Origin: an uncultured Poribacteria bacterium
GTDB lineage: Bacteria > Poribacteria > WGA-4E > WGA-3G
Length of the DNA stretch: 64,000 bases
NCBI GenBank assembly: GCA_958296135.2
Contig: CATQHZ020000001.1
Location: forward strand, 1,760,001-1,824,000
Reading direction: 5' to 3'
Program-made: the position numbers and the translations under genes
Shown: piece after piece, positions 6,651 through 13,068 of the stretch
Numbering within the stretch: position 1 is the first letter of the stretch
Layout of the letters: every line of letters starts with the position of its first letter
The notes under the pieces: generated by a model
Databases searched by the model: none
The model's input: the letters and a program-made list of their open reading frames with translations, nothing else
Told to the model about the DNA's origin: nothing

Positions 6651-8201
6651 ATGGCAGAGAAACCGATTATCACCGCCGATGCGGCGGCACAACTTGTGGA
6701 GAGCAGCGATACCCTCGTCATCGGTGGAAGTGGCGCAGGACACGCAATCCCCGAAACGCTCATCGAGGCACTCGGCAGACGTTTTCGGGCATCCCTCCAA
6801 CCGCGCGATTTGACAGTCGTCCACGTCAGCGGCATGGGCGACCAGGGTGAACGCGGGCTCGGGCACCTTGCCGATGCACGCCTTATCAAGCGCGACATCG
6901 GTGGGCATTGGGGAATGTCGCGCGTGATGACAGCCCTTGCTGTCACAAATCAGATTGAGGCGTATAACCTCCCGCAAGGTGTGTTATCGTGCTTGATGCG
7001 GAGTATCGCTTCTGGCGCGCCGGGTTACATCACGCATGTCGGCTTGCATACCTTCGTCGATCCGCGCCTTGAAGGCGGCAAACTCAACCCCCGCACGACA
7101 GAGGAACTGGTGGAGGTAGTCACCTTGCGAGAGAAGGAATACCTCTTTTATCCCAGTTTTCCGGTGGACATCGCCTTTGTGCGAGGAACAACAGCGGATG
7201 CTGAAGGGAACATCTCCATGGAAGAAGAGGTAGCATATTTCGAGATGCTCTCGGTTGCGCAGGCAGCGAAAAATTCGGGTGGCAAGGTTATCGCGCAAGT
7301 CAAACGGACAGTGCCGAGGCGCGCGCTCGATCCGCGCACGGTAAAAATTCCCGGTATTTTTGTCGACGCGCTAGTCCTCGCGCCTGAACAACAGCAGACT
7401 TACCAGATCGACTATAACCCGGCGTTGTGCGGTGATGCGCGCGATGGCGAACTCAGCATGGGCACTCTCCGTTTTGATGAACGGAAGGTGATTACCAAGC
7501 GCGCCGCGATGGAATTGCGGCCGGATGCCGTTGTCAATCTCGGCTTCGGGATGCCCTTCGGTGTCGGCATGATAGCCGAGGAGAGCGGCATCCGAGACAA
7601 GATTACGTTGAGCATTGAGCAAGGCAGCTTAGGCGGTGTCCCCGCGGGCGGCTTGGATTCCGGGGCGATGTTTTACCCGGTGGCAATCCTCGATCAGCCG
7701 TATCAGTTTGATGCCTATCAGGGCGGCGGAATTGACATTGCTTTTTTGTCGCACGCACAGGTAGATAGACACGGCAATGTCAACGTGAGCAAGTTTGGGA
7801 ATCGCATTCCCGGCTGCGGCGGTTTCATCGATATTTCACAAAATGCGAAGAAGGTGGTTTTCTGTGGCACACTTGCTGTAAAGGCGGAATTAGCAATTCG
7901 TGATGGAAAACTCAACGTGCTTAAGGAAGGCATTGCAAAGTTTGTCAACGACGTGGAGCAGATTACCTTCAGTAGTCGGTATGCGCGAGAGACGGGACAG
8001 GCGGTTTTCTATGTAACGGAGCGCGCCGTGTTTCAACTGACCGGGGCTGGCGTTATCTTGCGAGAAGTCGCGCCGGGGGTGGATATCCAGCGCGATGTTC
8101 TGGATGCGATTGAATTCGCGCCTATCGTTGCGGCTGATGTGGGGAGGATGGATGAAAGGATCTTTGGGGATGTGGCGTTGGCGTTTGAGGATTTTGAATG
8201 A
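6651..8201 (+). CDS. Acyl-CoA:acetate/propionate CoA-transferase (YdiF/Pct-like, fused alpha-beta)
   Basis: AYNLPQG, VGLHTFVDPR, VNLGFG, IEQG (catalytic Glu), GNVNVS, GGFIDISQ. Confidence 0.9.
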   Translation: MAEKPIITADAAAQLVESSDTLVIGGSGAGHAIPETLIEALGRRFRASLQPRDLTVVHVSGMGDQGERGLGHLADARLIKRDIGGHWGMSRVMTALAVTNQIEAYNLPQGVLSCLMRSIASGAPGYITHVGLHTFVDPRLEGGKLNPRTTEELVEVVTLREKEYLFYPSFPVDIAFVRGTTADAEGNISMEEEVAYFEMLSVAQAAKNSGGKVIAQVKRTVPRRALDPRTVKIPGIFVDALVLAPEQQQTYQIDYNPALCGDARDGELSMGTLRFDERKVITKRAAMELRPDAVVNLGFGMPFGVGMIAEESGIRDKITLSIEQGSLGGVPAGGLDSGAMFYPVAILDQPYQFDAYQGGGIDIAFLSHAQVDRHGNVNVSKFGNRIPGCGGFIDISQNAKKVVFCGTLAVKAELAIRDGKLNVLKEGIAKFVNDVEQITFSSRYARETGQAVFYVTERAVFQLTGAGVILREVAPGVDIQRDVLDAIEFAPIVAADVGRMDERIFGDVALAFEDFE

Positions 8202-8323
8202 TTGGGTGGAAAACGGGCGGAAACCATAGAAATCCGCCCTTACAAATGAAAAGGATAGGAGAAGCGCGAGCGGAAACCCTGAAGGTTAACGCTCGCGTCA
8301 ATAGATAGATTCCGGTCCGAGAA

Positions 8324-8701
8324 CTACGGAAACTCAATCCCCTGTTTCCGGCAGATCTTGCGAATCTTGTTAATGGCCCCGCCAATCTGCTTACCATTGC
8401 GTGTCACACCAAATAGATGCTGACTCACGACACGGCGTGAAATGCCGAGGATAGTCCCAATCTCTTCCTGCGTTTTACCAGCGTAGAAATAGAGTTGGAT
8501 GCACTCCGCTTGGCGCCCGGTCAGCTCTTCGGCGATAATTCGGCGGATCTGTTTGAGGACTTTCCGCCCCTTCGCACGCCGCGCCTTCGCCGATTTGCTG
8601 CTACCGGGCGGCTGATACCAAAGAGCGTCTTCGTTCGTCAGCCGATCGAAGTATTCCGGCGGAACCGAAACCTCCCAGAAATCCGGGTTAAATTTAGGCA
8701 T
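8324..8701 (-). CDS. Small sigma70 region-4 HTH protein (no region 2 visible)
   Basis: LTGRQAECIQLYFYAGKTQEEIGTILGISRRVVSQHL is a sigma-4-type HTH; 125 aa. Confidence 0.75.
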   Translation of the reverse strand: MPKFNPDFWEVSVPPEYFDRLTNEDALWYQPPGSSKSAKARRAKGRKVLKQIRRIIAEELTGRQAECIQLYFYAGKTQEEIGTILGISRRVVSQHLFGVTRNGKQIGGAINKIRKICRKQGIEFP

Positions 8702-8759
8702 AGAGAATTCTCCCTCAGCGCGAGGCTGAAGGTGCCTATGCCGTTATGATATGCGTTTA

Positions 8760-8861
8760 TCAATAAGAGGCAGAGGCACCTCGCCTAACACTGAATCTCG
8801 CCTGCCGCGTGCAGGCTTTCCTAGATACGTTCGGGTGAAGTGTCGCTAAGATGGATTGCAT
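8760..8861 (-). CDS. Putative 33-aa leader peptide MQSILATLHPNVSRKACTRQARFSVRRGASASY
   Basis: AAAAGGAGGT SD 7 nt before ATG; lies directly downstream of a sigma70 promoter. Confidence 0.55.
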   Translation of the reverse strand: MQSILATLHPNVSRKACTRQARFSVRRGASASY

Positions 8862-8933
8862 AATAGGTACCTCCTTTTCGTTTTGAACCCGTTCGGGTTA
8901 AAGGTTTATTTCTCGCCAACTTGTAATAGATAA

Positions 8934-8962
8934 ATTCTACCAAAAGCCTGAGAAAAAATCAA
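8934..8962 (-). promoter_or_regulatory. sigma70 promoter for the leader ORF and sigma-like gene
   Basis: TTGATT-17 nt-TAGAAT with extended TG. Confidence 0.65.
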
Positions 8963-9143
8963 GTCGTTAACATCCATAGACATTTTGTCTACGCTGAACT
9001 CGTATCTCTTCAGTTATAGGGCTATAGCGCAGCAGCTTCGGCAAGCCAAGCGGCGCACCGGAAAGATGAGGGCAGAGGGGTTTCAGCCCCCTGCCCCGTC
9101 CGGAAGGGCGCGACACGTAAGCCGCACCACAAGGGCGCGACAC

Positions 9144-9176
9144 TTACGTGTCACACCACCTCTGGTTTGCTAACAT
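9144..9176 (-). CDS. Putative 10-aa micro-ORF MLANQRWCDT within a structured RNA
   Basis: GAAAAGGAGGT SD 7 nt before ATG; stop codon in a GTAA tetraloop; GC hairpin at 9068-9098. Confidence 0.5.
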   Translation of the reverse strand: MLANQRWCDT

Positions 9177-9237
9177 AACAAGCACCTCCTTTTCCGCATA
9201 GCGGTACAGGATACCACGCTCATAAAAATGAGCATGA

Positions 9238-9269
9238 TTCACTTATACACCGTCTTGGATGCACTTTTT
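9238..9269 (-). promoter_or_regulatory. 32-bp element shared with the infA upstream region
   Basis: 27/32 identical to 12025-12056. Confidence 0.6.
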
Positions 9270-9349
9270 GCACCTTTCGCAGAAAAAAACGCAAAAAAAA
9301 CATTTTTTTTACTTATCCGGGCAGTAAGGCGCGTGGTTGAGAACCGTGC

Positions 9350-9544
9350 TTACCGGGTTCGTTCTGCGTCCCTCTTGTTAAATAGGCGAGGTTTTGGCAA
9401 GCCGGCTTCAAAAAGATAGGCAAGCTTGGTAAATACAGCACGCTCGCCTGATGAACTATTAACGAACACGAGGAAAAAGTGACTTTCCGGCGTAAATTCG
9501 TAGTCAAAGATCGAGTTGAGATTGGCATCCAGATAAGTGTGCAT
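9350..9544 (-). CDS. Hypothetical 64-aa protein (MHTYLDANLNSIFDYEF...)
   Basis: GGAGAG 6 nt before ATG; globular-looking composition; co-oriented with neighbours. Confidence 0.35.
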   Translation of the reverse strand: MHTYLDANLNSIFDYEFTPESHFFLVFVNSSSGERAVFTKLAYLFEAGLPKPRLFNKRDAERTR

Positions 9545-9809
9545 AACCATCTCTCCAATTGAGAAGTTGTCATTTCTTCCTCGGTATGAACTTCTGTCTT
9601 TCGGGCTCGTCTAATACCAAATTCAGTCGATTTTTCTGGGGCTGTCATCCCCAGTTTTCCGCTGTCGTTTGGGCTCGCCCTGCTTCGCAGGAAACCCGAA
9701 CGGTGGACATCTCGGCAGCGAGGCTGCAGAGATGACAAAGTTGAGCATGCCGGTCAAGAGCCGGCGCATCTCCCCCTACAGAGACGATACGAATCAAGTT
9801 AATTTCATA

Positions 9810-10640
9810 TTACAGCCCCAATTCTATCAATTCATGGAGAGGCGCGGTGAGACGCGGCGGAGGCGCACCCAGGTCGGGCGCAACACCGCTCTCCCATTCA
9901 CCCCGGTCGAGCCCCATCGTATAGTGTGGCTCAGTCTCATCTGTGTAACTGAGGTACCGGAGCCCCGTATTCTCAAAACAAGTGAGCGCGGCATCGTTAT
10001 CTGACGGCACCTGTAGCGTGATGCGCGTCGCATCCAAGTCCTCAAACGCAAGACGGACTGCCTCGCGCATCACATCAGTGCCGTAGCCGCGGCCGCGGTA
10101 ATCCGGCCGAATCACAACGAGCACCACAACAGCAGCATCTCCCTCACAGCGGAGCAGAAGAAACCCGATAAGGACTTTTGTCCGTCGGATCTGAATTGAG
10201 AAGGCGTGGGTATGTGGCACAGTTAGCCAATGGTGCCAGTCTGCTGCAAGGGTTTCAAACGGCACGCGCGCTGGATATAGGATTTCCCGGAGTCCCGGAC
10301 GATTAATCCAGTTCCAAATTCGGCGGAGTTCGTTTTTCTCAGTGGGAGAGAGACGGATGCCGCCGCCTCGGCGGCGTTCTAATTCTCGCAATTCGCTGTG
10401 CAGGCTTTCCAATTGCGCGGCATGCATGCCGATTTGCGCGCCAGCGGCGCGGACTTTCCGTTGATTCGGCCGCTCCATGTATCGCGCTTTCTTCACCTGA
10501 TTTTGAAAGTAGACCAGCTTCTGCTCGCTTTTCTCAATGATCTGGTGCATGTTCTGAATTGCTTCATCCCACTTCTTCACCTCAGCGTCTTCGTCGCCGC
10601 TCTTTTCGGGGCCCGCGTTTTCTCTCTGAGGTTCGTTCAT
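9810..10640 (-). CDS. GNAT N-acetyltransferase with N-terminal coiled coil
   Basis: IRPDYRGRGYG acetyl-CoA motif, N..AL..FE..G; AAGGAGG SD before MNEPQ. Confidence 0.8.
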   Translation of the reverse strand: MNEPQRENAGPEKSGDEDAEVKKWDEAIQNMHQIIEKSEQKLVYFQNQVKKARYMERPNQRKVRAAGAQIGMHAAQLESLHSELRELERRRGGGIRLSPTEKNELRRIWNWINRPGLREILYPARVPFETLAADWHHWLTVPHTHAFSIQIRRTKVLIGFLLLRCEGDAAVVVLVVIRPDYRGRGYGTDVMREAVRLAFEDLDATRITLQVPSDNDAALTCFENTGLRYLSYTDETEPHYTMGLDRGEWESGVAPDLGAPPPRLTAPLHELIELGL

Positions 10641-11571
10641 ATCTTCCCTCCTTAAATCCGGAGATGCGGAGATAACTCTCATATCGCATCGGTGCGATGT
10701 CGCCAACTTCAACGGCACGTTTGACTGCACACGCGGGTTCATGCCGGTGCGTGCACGCTGCGAACTTGCACTCTGGGATATACGGCCGCATCTCCGGGAA
10801 ATGGATATCCACTCCCTGTTCCTCGTCAATCTCCAGCAAGCCGAGGGTGCGGATGCCCGGCGTATCCGCGACGAACCCGCCGAATTCCAGCGGCAGCAGC
10901 ATGACTTCTGTCGTCGTATGCCGCCCTTTGTGGATGCGTTCGTCCACCTCGCCGATGCGCAGGTGGAGGCCCGGTTGCAGCGCATTGAGCAGCGAGGATT
11001 TGCCCACTCCCGATGAACCGACAATCGCCGAGATTTTATGCTGCATCACGGCGCGCAACTTTTCAATGCCGAAACCTGTCACGGTACTGGTATAAACCAC
11101 CGTATAGCCTAATTCTTCATATAATTTGAGTTCTCGCTGCACATTCTCCAACTTCGCCAAATCAAGTTTGTTAATACAGATGACCGGCTCTACTCCCGAT
11201 GCCTCCGCGGTGACGAGAAACCGGTCGAGCATCCGCAGTTTCAGCGTCGGATGCCGCGCCGCGAAGATAATGAGCAGCATTTCAAGGTTGGCGACAATCA
11301 CTTGCCGCCGCCCATCCATGCGCGTCCTGCCAAATTGCGTCTCGCGCGGGAGACACGCCTCAATGTAACCACCATCCGAGGTAGATGCAGCAACGGAAAT
11401 ACGCACCCGGTCGCCTACCGCGACGAGTTCAACGAACGGCATCTCTTTCGTTTCAGCGAGCCGCCGCTTTTCCGCTTCAATGAGGTGGTAGCGCAAGGTG
11501 CAAGTATAACACCGCTTGCCAACCTGCACTTCGTACGCGCTACCCCGCGCTTTGATGACAACGCCTTCCAT
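10582..11571 (-). CDS. rsgA: Ribosome small subunit-dependent GTPase A
   Basis: Circularly permuted NKLD / GSSGVGKSS / GRHTTT / DTPG; zinc motif CKFAACTHRHEPAC. Confidence 0.95.
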   Translation of the reverse strand: MEGVVIKARGSAYEVQVGKRCYTCTLRYHLIEAEKRRLAETKEMPFVELVAVGDRVRISVAASTSDGGYIEACLPRETQFGRTRMDGRRQVIVANLEMLLIIFAARHPTLKLRMLDRFLVTAEASGVEPVICINKLDLAKLENVQRELKLYEELGYTVVYTSTVTGFGIEKLRAVMQHKISAIVGSSGVGKSSLLNALQPGLHLRIGEVDERIHKGRHTTTEVMLLPLEFGGFVADTPGIRTLGLLEIDEEQGVDIHFPEMRPYIPECKFAACTHRHEPACAVKRAVEVGDIAPMRYESYLRISGFKEGRYERTSERKRGPRKERRRRR

Positions 11572-11729
11572 AGCCTTTCGTCCTAGAATTGCCGCTCAGG
11601 GCTCATAGGCGCGCTTTCAAAGCGCGCCTACCTCATGTTATCAGGCCCTCGCGATGCCAGGCAGCACGCGGGGGACAGCCCCCCGCCCTACGTGACAAGG
11701 GCCCGTAACCTCAGGTTATCGGAGAGCCG

Positions 11730-11984
11730 CTACGCGCCCGGGTTCCGCCAGATGATACGCCCACGCGTCAGGTCATACGGCGATAACTCCACCGTCACCT
11801 GGTCTCCGGGGAGAACCCAGATTTTGTGCTGCACCAGCTTGCCAGCCAGATACGCCACAGCCTTATATTCGTTTTCCAACTTCACACGAAACAGGTTCCC
11901 CGGCAGCGATTCAAGAACCTCTCCAGGGACCCGGATGGCCGTATTTTTCACGGCCTGCTTGCGGGTTACATTTCTATTCTTCAT
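11730..11984 (-). CDS. infA: Translation initiation factor IF-1 (divergent, orphan paralog)
   Basis: GEVLESLPGNLFRVKLEN...PGDQVTVELSPYDLTRGRI; no ribosomal protein operon next to it. Confidence 0.85.
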   Translation of the reverse strand: MKNRNVTRKQAVKNTAIRVPGEVLESLPGNLFRVKLENEYKAVAYLAGKLVQHKIWVLPGDQVTVELSPYDLTRGRIIWRNPGA

Positions 11985-12024
11985 TGTTTCGGTTCCTTTC
12001 GTAATCACACGGGTTTTTAATCTC

Positions 12025-12056
12025 TTCACTTTAACACCTACTTGGATGCATTTTTT
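12025..12056 (-). promoter_or_regulatory. 32-bp element upstream of infA (second copy)
   Basis: AAAAAATGCATCCAAGTAGGTGTTAAAGTGAA; matches 9238-9269. Confidence 0.6.
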
Positions 12057-12258
12057 AACGTAACTTTCAATAAAAACGTTGACCTCTGTTTGCAAAACTG
12101 TTAAAATAAATTAGATTTTACGCGGACTAACTCCGGTAGGCGCGGTTTGAAACAGCACCTACCGGGAGAGAATTAAGGCGTTCGCGTAAGGCCCGATAAA
12201 TAAGCATTCAGAAAAATATAAGGGCGGCACCTCAGGCTGTCCGCAACGATGGAGGAAA

Positions 12259-13068
12259 ATGTCAATGTCTCAAGCCTTACCGCTTACCGCCTACACCGAA
12301 TTGGCACAGCAGGTTACGGCGATGGAAGAGGACGGCTACGCTTACCTGCCAAAGGTTATTGATGACGAGCAACTAGCGGAACTCCGCGATGCTATGGATC
12401 GGCTCACCGCTATCCCCGAAAGTTTCGACCGGCACAGCGTTTCACAGAACGGCGAAGGGTTTCTTAACAAACATATCAACAACGCCTTTAATCGCGACCC
12501 GGTTTTCCTGCAATACCTTGATATGTCACCTGTCATTGAGTTAGCAGAGGCAGTCCACGGCGACGATTGCCACGTCATCGGGATGACCGCGTGGATGACG
12601 GGCCCCGGCCGCCCAGACCAGGGTTTGCACACAGATTGGCTGCCCATCCCGCTTCCGGTAGACGTTTTGGCGGATAAACGCGTGAAGGTGCCAATTTTCA
12701 TCACCACCGCGCACTACTATCTCGATGAGCTCTATGAAGAACTGGGTCCGACGAAGTTCGTCCCGGGCAGCCACCTTTCAGGCAGAAGACCGGATGGCGA
12801 GACAGAGTGGAAGGGTGCACAGGAGAAAAGCATCCTCTGCAATGCCGGCGACGTAGTGATTTTCCGCAGCGAAGTCTGGCACAGAGGCACCGCCAATCAC
12901 AGCAACCAGACCCGGTATTTGTTGCAGGTGCATTACGCGAATCGGATGATAACCCAGAAATTCCCGCCGTATCTGAACCGGTTTCAGTTCGATGAAGCCA
13001 TTCTGGACCAGGCAAACGAACGCCAACAGCGGTTGATGGGCAACCATCGTCCGGGGGCTTACGATTAA
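12259..13068 (+). CDS. Phytanoyl-CoA dioxygenase (PhyH) family protein
   Basis: EDGY, LHTD, VPGSH, GDVVIF..EVWHRG..N. Confidence 0.9.
   Translation: MSMSQALPLTAYTELAQQVTAMEEDGYAYLPKVIDDEQLAELRDAMDRLTAIPESFDRHSVSQNGEGFLNKHINNAFNRDPVFLQYLDMSPVIELAEAVHGDDCHVIGMTAWMTGPGRPDQGLHTDWLPIPLPVDVLADKRVKVPIFITTAHYYLDELYEELGPTKFVPGSHLSGRRPDGETEWKGAQEKSILCNAGDVVIFRSEVWHRGTANHSNQTRYLLQVHYANRMITQKFPPYLNRFQFDEAILDQANERQQRLMGNHRPGAYD

Follow-up and report, generated by a model that had tools for sequence, protein, structure and literature searches.

Which factor reads the 32-nucleotide (nt) element that precedes two separate units of a poribacterial chromosome, an extra gene for translation initiation factor 1 (IF-1), infA2, and a small structured RNA that is followed by the gene for a 125-residue protein resembling only region 4 of a sigma-70 factor (the sigma-4 protein)? 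Both copies lie within a 64,000-nt stretch, the window, of an uncultured Poribacteria genome of 5,187,939 bases (G000). Features are given in window coordinates, and all genes of the putative circuit (IF-1, RsgA, GNAT acetyltransferase and sigma-4-like protein) are on the minus strand, where a first reading from the letters of the window (the sequence-only reading) had placed them. That reading had proposed a ribosome-sensing circuit, in which translation of leader peptides controls a sigma-4-type regulator that in turn drives the IF-1 paralogue. We compared the locus with 41 genomes of the order, 25 from family f1 and 16 from other families. The explanation that we favour, with modest confidence, is that the sigma-4 protein binds the element and autoregulates a small, lineage-flexible regulon, which in f1 would include the IF-1 and RsgA paralogues and an RNA with a micro-open reading frame (micro-ORF).

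The two copies of the element agree at 27 of 32 positions, and no third copy is present on either strand of the genome at up to 8 mismatches. A 34-column weight matrix scores them at 48.0 and 39.9 bits in G000, with the next best site at 18.4 bits. The recurrence upstream of infA seen at the outset is thus peculiar to these two sites, and comparison among genomes identifies the element shared by the IF-1 paralogue and the RNA/sigma-4 unit as a conserved and highly specific candidate promoter box. It can be read as AAAGTGCATCC(R)A-N4-TGTGn followed by a -10-like hexamer, with no -35 element. In genus g10 the box reads TGTGTTATAAT, which holds a perfect extended -10 (TGTGnTATAAT). Set in the extended -10 register, AAAAGTGCATCC would span about -34 to -23, and on our own reading the -35 position would be occupied by a CAAAAG-like sequence. 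This register predicts a start where the 5′ hairpin of the RNA has its base; the hairpin's covarying pairs (columns 8/28 and 9/27) fall just inside the predicted transcript, and its invariant outer pairs overlap the promoter. An alternative register, with GTGCAT as -35 and GTGAAT as -10, would turn TGTGT into a conserved spacer and leave the covarying bases outside the RNA; because it strands both, we read the box promoters as extended -10 promoters in which a factor-binding box replaces the -35. The divergent PhyH-like gene 5′ of infA2 has an ordinary TTGACC-17-TAAAAT promoter; the organism therefore appears to use ordinary -35 elements, which the box promoters lack. A sigma-54 reading of the box was rejected by eye, as the upstream half is unconserved between families and the spacing does not fit.

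A strong single-copy orthologue of the sigma-4 protein (57–87% identity) is encoded in 31 of the 41 genomes, and two further genomes give only weak matches (~1e-4). The strict pattern AARTGCATCCRANNNNKTRT occurs one to seven times per genome in exactly the 31 orthologue-bearing genomes and not at all in the other 10, which include two congeners of the window genome; the reversed pattern, as a control, gave 3 matches in total over the 41 genomes. Judged by these counts, the box appears to mark one to seven promoters per genome, and only where the single-copy 125-residue protein is encoded. Of 21 sigma-4 loci, 19 have it 370–780 nt 5′ of the gene; in one of the 19 (G005) its -10 half is deleted. 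Among 80 further sigma-4 loci, same-strand upstream boxes (>25 bits) are present in 70, one each in 50 loci, two in 17 and three in 3, with positions clustered near -545 and -300 relative to the sigma-4 gene; opposite-strand and downstream boxes are absent from all 80. Of the 25 f1 genomes, 16 have a box scoring 25 bits or more before infA2, and 20 have one scoring 15 bits or more. The sigma-4 gene is missing from G002 and G001, and the core of their infA2 boxes is mutated (GTGTATCC and GTGTATTC); all that is left of the RNA and the sigma-4 gene in G002 is an 83-nt remnant of the terminator.

Boxed units in G000 are confined to infA2 and the RNA/sigma-4 unit. At other sites and in other families, the box precedes genes for an ABC-2 permease and for CBM9/DUF5916, WD40, Reg_prop, PcfJ-like and unknown proteins. 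Because these genes are unrelated, the regulon appears to be small and lineage-flexible, with a translation flavour specific to f1, and the purely translational regulon first envisaged has to be given up. A recurrent pair of genes without a Pfam match also stands under the box (L073, L078, L080, L082, L083, L087, L088, L094 and L099); its members encode proteins of ~270 residues (...QCSTSVQVEAHWDPIADSTFNLH...) and ~236 residues (LRAGPLSNSEVI..LNEKFVNTWVLLRELPEL...), and in L080 the pair is present in up to three tandem copies.

A Pfam scan of the 125-residue protein returned region-4-type families only (PF04545, 46.1 bits against a cut-off of 24.1; PF08281, 28.5 against 25.7) and no region 2, so that its initial description as a sigma-like protein confined to region 4 holds. 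Against the NCBIfam sigma70-ECF superfamily model the protein reaches 36.4 bits (cut-off 42.9), matching positions 110–154 only; GerE (21.1 against 23.5), UPF0122 (13.4 against 22.7) and NCBIfam YlxM (17.9 against 80) also stay below their cut-offs. Sequence-profile matches are to FliA/SigF/WhiG-type region 4 and to YlxM. An AlphaFold2 model (predicted local distance difference test score 74.5; 83–94 per 10-residue block over residues 51–120) consists of a long helix (35–59), three helix-turn-helix (HTH) helices, a beta-hairpin (99–106) and a final helix, and its top Foldseek matches are the -35-binding domains of SigL and SigE, at E-values of just 0.035–0.2; with SigC included, the E-values span 0.035–0.4, which is weak. 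Among 28 diverse members, little or no variation is seen in the recognition helix GISRRVVSQH or in the N-terminal FNPDFWE motif; the core of the box is nearly invariant as well. A search for fused longer relatives, weak as evidence, gave no fused form and a single longer protein, of 230 residues and with region 4 only. Region-2 genes number 20 in G000 and 20 in each of two box-less congeners; by count only, loss of the box is therefore not explained by loss of a full sigma factor. Nineteen region-2 matches in G000 exceed the cut-off, and the smallest open frame around one of them has 185 residues. In the relatives G004, G005 and G009, open frames of 110–157 residues match sigma region 2; these could be truncated genes or stand-alone region-2 proteins.

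The RNA of ~175 nt that begins at one of the boxes has the order 5′ hairpin, UCCU:AGGA helix sequestering a Shine–Dalgarno (SD) sequence, 10-codon open reading frame (ORF), nested hairpin and terminator. The nested hairpin, of ~27 base pairs (bp), is built from two copies of GGUGUGACAC/GUGUYRCRCC. The minimum free energy (MFE) of the RNA is -100.6 kcal/mol, as against -66.7 ± 4.7 for shuffled sequences (z -7.3), and an alifold consensus of 15 sequences shows compensatory change in 8 of 52 pairs. When 64 distinct sequences were aligned by fitting to our model of the RNA, R1, which favours structure, 99.2% of cells were paired (44–63% in slid controls) and 11 of 44 pairs showed compensatory change (3.5 ± 1.1 in shuffles). 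Within the terminator helix, which is followed by a T-run, 6 of 11 pairs change in a compensatory manner. Model R1 finds one copy in 23 of the 25 f1 genomes, the two misses being the two congeners of G000, weak matches in 2 of 5 g10 genomes and none in families f3 or f4; of the 80 further sigma-4 loci, 61 have the RNA before the gene. In G004 it follows the GNAT gene, 715 kb from the sigma-4 gene; G005 has an intact copy elsewhere, and in G017 and G023 the RNA follows infA2. Since it is also present away from the sigma-4 gene, we regard the RNA as a unit of its own; the separate copies of G004, G005 and G023 are preceded by the box. In genus g8 (L034–L036), a predicted membrane protein of ~95 residues takes the place of the RNA between the box and the leader ORF of the sigma-4 gene.

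The two leader ORFs with near-identical ribosome-binding sites that the sequence-only reading had pointed out, of 10 codons (9176–9144) and 33 codons (8861–8760), both stood up to comparison. The ribosome-binding stretches at 8859–8879 and 9174–9194 are identical at 18 of 21 positions; AAAAGGAGGT has 13 copies in the genome, of which 4 have an ATG 6–8 nt later, 2 of those 4 at this locus. The 10-codon ORF is present in 66 of 66 RNA copies with invariant ATG and SD, and its few substitutions are mostly non-synonymous (MLANQRRCDT, -CGT, MLSNQ..., W/R at position 7). The longer ORF is conserved as an ORF in 76 of 79 sigma-4 loci. What was expected of the RNA fold fared less evenly. A strongly structured RNA is indeed present; a competing two-hairpin structure is energetically uncompetitive, as one nested long hairpin dominates and no two-hairpin alternative comes within 5–8 kcal/mol. 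In constrained MFE folds, which are thermodynamic models, the terminator was kept whether the start or the end of the ORF was blocked, and no antiterminator fold appeared. Because the terminator folds regardless of where the ribosome stands on the micro-ORF, a classic leader-peptide attenuator is unsupported.

Directly before the sigma-4 gene, an SD sequence and upstream ORF (uORF) of 23–39 codons, ending 43–74 nt before the sigma-4 ATG, are found in those 76 of 79 loci. The uORF uses two reading frames (...RRWCLCP... or ...GDGAS...), which suggests that constraint acts on the ORF and the RNA rather than on the peptide. In the window, arm A (GGTGCCTCTGCC, 8780–8769) and arm B (GGCATAGGCACC, 8742–8731) precede the sigma-4 SD (8716–8710), which lies in a CCTC...GAGG anti-SD/SD hairpin, and the start context reads TCTATGCC. 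Arm A as GGTGCCTCTG, inside the uORF, arm B as GGCATAGG and the start context as TATCTATG(C/T)C are nearly invariant in 76–78 of the 79 loci, and in g10 a compensatory GGTACC/GGTACC pair replaces the usual arms. An alifold consensus of 42 sequences pairs A with B, places a small CCUC/GAGG hairpin over the SD and pairs the uORF segment GGCGAUG with the start region (pair 48/140: GC in 21 sequences, GU in 19 and AU in 2); the probability that the sigma-4 SD is unpaired is 0.14 in the window. A pairing of arm B with the start codon, suggested by constrained folds, was set aside, for it shows conserved complementarity only, with no covariation, and alifold prefers the pairing of the uORF segment with the start region.

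IF-1 and RsgA both act on the 30S subunit. As the sequence-only reading had it, the IF-1 of this locus is a divergent paralogue, and the RsgA beside it proves to be an extra copy too. The infA2 product scores 92.9 bits against TIGR00008 (NCBIfam infA; cut-off 61.15), and the canonical IF-1, encoded at C1:3.22 Mb and 49% identical to it, scores 119.7; passing this equivalog model, infA2 is predicted to encode an initiation factor. Two IF-1 genes are present in each of the 25 f1 genomes, and a single one in 15 of the 16 genomes of other families, so that, on these counts, infA2 is a duplication at the level of the f1 family. RsgA2 matches TIGR00157 with 236 bits (cut-off 100) and PF03193 with 188.5 bits (cut-off 30), and the second RsgA copy of G000 is encoded at C1:397033. 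Extra RsgA copies are restricted to genera in which rsgA follows infA2: genus g5 mostly has three, and genus g2, which lacks both rsgA2 and the GNAT gene at the infA2 locus, has one. The third RsgA of g5 (~403 residues, with an N-terminal extension) has a box of 31.5–38.8 bits ~100 nt 5′ of its ATG in all seven g5 genomes analysed; the extension (L109–L115) comprises ~105 residues (MAMSVYAGTTL...DYSAFDWRER...). The rsgA2 and GNAT genes overlap by 59 nt (10582–10640), and the GNAT start is preceded by a good AGGAGG. The basic C-terminal tail of RsgA2 (...RKRGPRKERRRRR) is encoded across the GNAT start. Relatives of the GNAT are 53–58% identical and syntenic in g3, g4 and g5, and 78% identical in the congener G002. 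Its assignment to the RimJ/RimL type was not borne out: of the models applied, generic GNAT families alone exceed their cut-offs (Acetyltransf_1, 48.3 bits; Acetyltransf_3, 42.2 bits), and RimI/RimJ/RimL-specific models do not (rimI TIGR01575, 36.8 against 86.4; PRK09491, 17.4 against 173).

Autoregulated stand-alone sigma-4-like subunits are known, which gives the reading that we favour a precedent. In Tn916, Sig7-Sig8 (Orf7-Orf8) is reported to include a sigma-4-like subunit that acts at the promoter of its own gene in positive feedback (10.64898/2026.10.01.756105), and Bacillus subtilis SigO-RsoA is described as sigma-2 and sigma-4 split into two polypeptides (PMC7826278). The poribacterial protein is, like these subunits, small, stand-alone and region-4-like, and it has a candidate promoter box before its own gene in 70 of 80 loci, which it may itself use. 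Unlike the split sigma factors, its gene has no adjacent region-2-like partner, is chromosomal, single-copy and vertically inherited in one phylum, and is associated with an extended -10 plus an upstream box rather than with -35 and -10 elements at sigma spacing; the protein also has the conserved N-terminal FNPDFWE segment. In sigma appropriation, phage T4 MotA, which is not sigma-4-like, recognizes a box near -30 and requires AsiA to remodel region 4 of the host sigma factor. The T4 middle promoters combine a good -10 with an activator box in the place of the -35 (PMC6755090). The poribacterial promoters resemble them in having a -10 and a box at the -35 place, but here the candidate reader itself has a predicted sigma-4 fold. 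Proteins of 109–146 residues with sigma region 4 only also exist in other phyla and in phages. Named ‘sigma factor-like helix-turn-helix DNA-binding proteins’ (Myxococcota, Hydrogenedentota, Bacillota and phages), they are of the same size class and have Pfam region-4 domains; the cluster entries compared, which consist of names, Pfam families and taxa only, mention neither a regulon nor a box or leader layout, and language-model feature scores for these clusters are 0.95–0.97. Likeness to YlxM/UPF0122 and to GerE/LuxR-type HTH proteins is weak, with all scores below family cut-offs. Control of a downstream start by a leader ORF is familiar from erm-type translational attenuation and from the coupling of genes to uORFs. 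The sigma-4 leader resembles such leaders in having a short ORF with a strong SD that runs through a helix with partner strands at or beside the sigma-4 SD and start; unlike them, it has an unconserved peptide in two frames and no identified stalling motif, and the 10-codon RNA has no antiterminator. Titles and abstracts of the literature on Poribacteria sigma factors and on infA/IF1/RsgA paralogues gave no account of this system. The module appears to be specific to Poribacteria and may be a variant of stand-alone or split sigma-like regulators not described before.

How might such a protein work? We propose that it would recognize the AAAGTGCATCC half of the box, which on our promoter reading occupies about -34 to -23, the place of a -35, and that the housekeeping holoenzyme would use the extended -10. 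In this way the protein would regulate a small set of promoters, its own among them, more probably by activation, as a substitute for the missing -35 contact, than by repression. Its synthesis would further be gated after transcription: the uORF crosses helices that pair with or flank the SD and start codon of the sigma-4 gene, and ribosomes translating the uORF should disturb them and so alter access to that start, either opening or closing it. The output in f1 would include alternative factors for translation initiation and 30S maturation. Favouring this reading are the specificity of the box, its co-occurrence with the regulator, its upstream position on the same strand, the fold of the protein and the decay of the box after loss of the regulator. 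Several observations weigh against it. The genomes are related, and the co-occurrence may amount to perhaps three or four independent gains or losses; part of it also follows trivially from the box before the sigma-4 gene itself. Ten of the 80 loci have no box in the sequence covered, one of them with just 88 nt upstream, and 5 of the 25 infA2 promoters score below 15 bits, with a weak box or none. Within f1 the RNA shares the phyletic pattern of the box, and the box could depend on the RNA or on a factor that has escaped notice. At 11–12 bp, the conserved block is long for one HTH, the AlphaFold2 confidence is low over N-terminal residues 1–40, and the assignments of the -10 and start site are readings of the sequence. 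Among the genes adjoining sigma-4, which is where one was sought, no locus has a region-2-like partner. Finally, infA2 is kept in two congeneric genomes that lack the regulator. Of the earlier idea that the sigma-4 protein drives the box genes, what remains is that it is the best candidate reader, matched in presence and absence across 31 + 10 of the 41 genomes; dependence of infA2 on it does not follow, given those two congeners.

The same retention of infA2 would fit a box read by another factor, either one of the ~19 full sigma factors (19 region-2 matches above cut-off in G000) or an unrelated transcription factor, the sigma-4 protein then being a mere member of the regulon, for instance an RNA polymerase decoy or a regulator of other sites. 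A conserved GTGAA 17 nt downstream of GTGCAT, a possible -10 for a dedicated sigma, points the same way, but that register makes the conserved TGTGT a spacer and leaves the covarying base of the hairpin untranscribed, and the g10 box has a perfect TGTGnTATAAT. With the ten sigma-4-less genomes box-less and the region-2 count unchanged in two congeners, we consider this explanation rather unlikely. The sigma-4 protein might instead be the region-4 half of a split sigma factor, whose small region-2-like partner, encoded elsewhere, reads the downstream half of the box. Known split sigmas have a stand-alone region-4 subunit and positive autoregulation, the full 32-nt box is conserved beyond its upstream half, and region-2 frames of 110–157 residues occur in some relatives. 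Yet the neighbours of the sigma-4 gene are the 23–39-codon uORF and the RNA, with no partner beside it in any locus; the smallest above-cut-off region-2 frame in G000, 185 residues, came from scans that included no search aimed at RsoA-like proteins; and the distance from GTGCATCC to the -10-like hexamer, ~10 nt, is too short for sigma-4 and sigma-2 unless the weaker GTGAAT is the -10. We judge a split sigma factor decidedly improbable.

Compatible with the sigma-4 protein as reader of the box is a third explanation, that the micro-ORF RNA is a ribosome-sensing attenuator in which leader translation decides read-through into the sigma-4 gene. All 66 copies keep its SD, ATG and ORF length, the stop lies inside the long hairpin, an intrinsic terminator follows the ORF and the RNA is upstream of the sigma-4 gene in most of the further loci; moreover, G000 has no second box between the RNA and the sigma-4 gene, so that read-through may be needed there. 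But the constrained folds keep the terminator with a ribosome at start or stop, G004, G005 and G023 have the RNA at a distance from the sigma-4 gene, as a unit by itself, and in 20 of the 80 loci two or three boxes precede the sigma-4 gene, the extra ones mostly near -300, directly before the uORF. The peptide, too, has no run of regulatory codons and changes mostly non-synonymously, and attenuation seems improbable to us. Coincidental synteny, with neighbours kept together by descent and the shared 32 nt a local duplication without regulatory meaning, would accord with a cluster order inherited within one family, with the absence of rsgA2 and GNAT from the g2 locus and with two ribosome-binding units that are possible duplicates. 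It is hardly credible, however, for a box that three families share and that stands at unlinked loci before genes without homology to one another, always on the coding strand upstream of a gene or RNA, and that is absent elsewhere in G000.

The features of the locus are collected below.

Features of the infA2–sigma-4 locus, in window coordinates, with the evidence for each
Feature	Position	Strand	Evidence
infA2 (IF-1 paralogue, 84 residues, N-terminal extension of ~12 residues)	11730..11984	-	Pfam eIF-1a 8e-22; NCBIfam infA
rsgA2 (extra paralogue of the 30S-maturation GTPase RsgA)	10582..11571	-	PF03193 1.2e-55; TIGR00157
GNAT acetyltransferase, ~90-residue N-terminal coiled-coil-like segment	9810..10640	-	Acetyltransf_1 1.4e-12; Acetyltransf_3 1.7e-10
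Candidate promoter box copy 2, AAAAAATGCATCCAAGTAGGTGTTAAAGTGAA, ~40–70 nt 5′ of infA2 ATG	12025..12056	-	repeat, 39.9 bits
Candidate promoter box copy 1, AAAAAGTGCATCCAAGACGGTGTATAAGTGAA, at head of structured RNA	9238..9269	-	repeat, 48.0 bits
Structured RNA, ~175 nt (5′ hairpin, anti-SD/SD helix, 10-codon ORF, nested hairpin, intrinsic terminator)	9062..9236	-	covariation
10-codon ORF MLANQRWCDT	9176-9144	-	inside ~175-nt RNA
Intrinsic terminator of ~175-nt RNA	9097-9062	-	
uORF, 33 codons, strong SD GAAAAGGAGGTACCTATTATG, end within conserved helix	8760..8861	-	
Sigma-4 leader helices and start context	8699..8781	-	inverted repeat, conservation, alifold
125-residue protein, sigma-70 region 4 only	8324..8701	-	Sigma70_r4 3.3e-12, 46.1 bits against cut-off of 24.1
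REP-like palindrome between infA2 and rsgA2	11606..11632	.	genome-wide repeat, outside circuit

The neighbourhood comparison that had been suggested showed the cluster order to be inherited within one family, with the element and the micro-ORFs conserved. Downstream, the sigma-4 gene faces a convergent plus-strand CoA-transferase-like gene. A scan of the whole window for tRNA and tmRNA genes found none, and an Rfam scan of 7500–13000 on both strands (4227 families, E up to 1) gave 0 matches. Among the sequencing runs listed for the locus there was none of RNA; four runs, all from one study, contain the DNA in the form of contigs. The GNAT and sigma-4 genes are separated by a 1.1-kb gap, the 5′ half of which (~9300–9810) has no conservation in relatives and consists partly of dispersed repeats; this half is an insertion specific to G000 between the GNAT gene and the RNA promoter. 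It includes a dispersed repeat of 43–45 nt at 9698–9742, with many dozens of copies across the genome, and a 200-nt stretch at ~9612–9815 with 83.5% identity to C1:1983094–1983292. ORFs of 66 and 141 codons in 9313–9738 were discounted as spurious because they are unconserved in relatives and overlap the dispersed repeats. A palindrome of ~27 nt (TAGGCGCGCTTTCAAAGCGCGCCTA-like) flanks infA2 on both sides (11606–11632 and 12137–12163); it belongs to a family resembling repetitive extragenic palindromes (REP-like), with 363 genome copies at up to 5 mismatches, and lies outside the circuit. The infA2–rsgA2 gap is just 20–50 nt in most relatives. Contig C2 of G000 (144 kb) has 36.8% G+C, as against 54.4% for the main contig; it could have been binned here from another organism, or be an extrachromosomal element.

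To our knowledge, proteins with sigma region 4 only are common in annotations and almost never have an assigned site or regulon. The comparative data presented here point to both for one such protein, and they define a candidate regulator, a DNA box, target promoters and a structured RNA family at base resolution: a concrete, testable circuit in Poribacteria, an uncultured phylum of sponge symbionts. One extension of the sigma-4 reading, which we think doubtful, is a host-encoded sigma appropriation wired to translation capacity. The sigma-4 domain would replace the housekeeping region 4 and switch on IF-1b, RsgA2/RsgA3, the GNAT and a dual-function micro-ORF RNA; its own synthesis would be set by ribosome traffic over the two micro-ORFs, closing a feedback loop that senses and retunes initiation. 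The IF-1 and RsgA paralogues among the putative targets hint at condition-specific remodelling of translation initiation or of 30S maturation.

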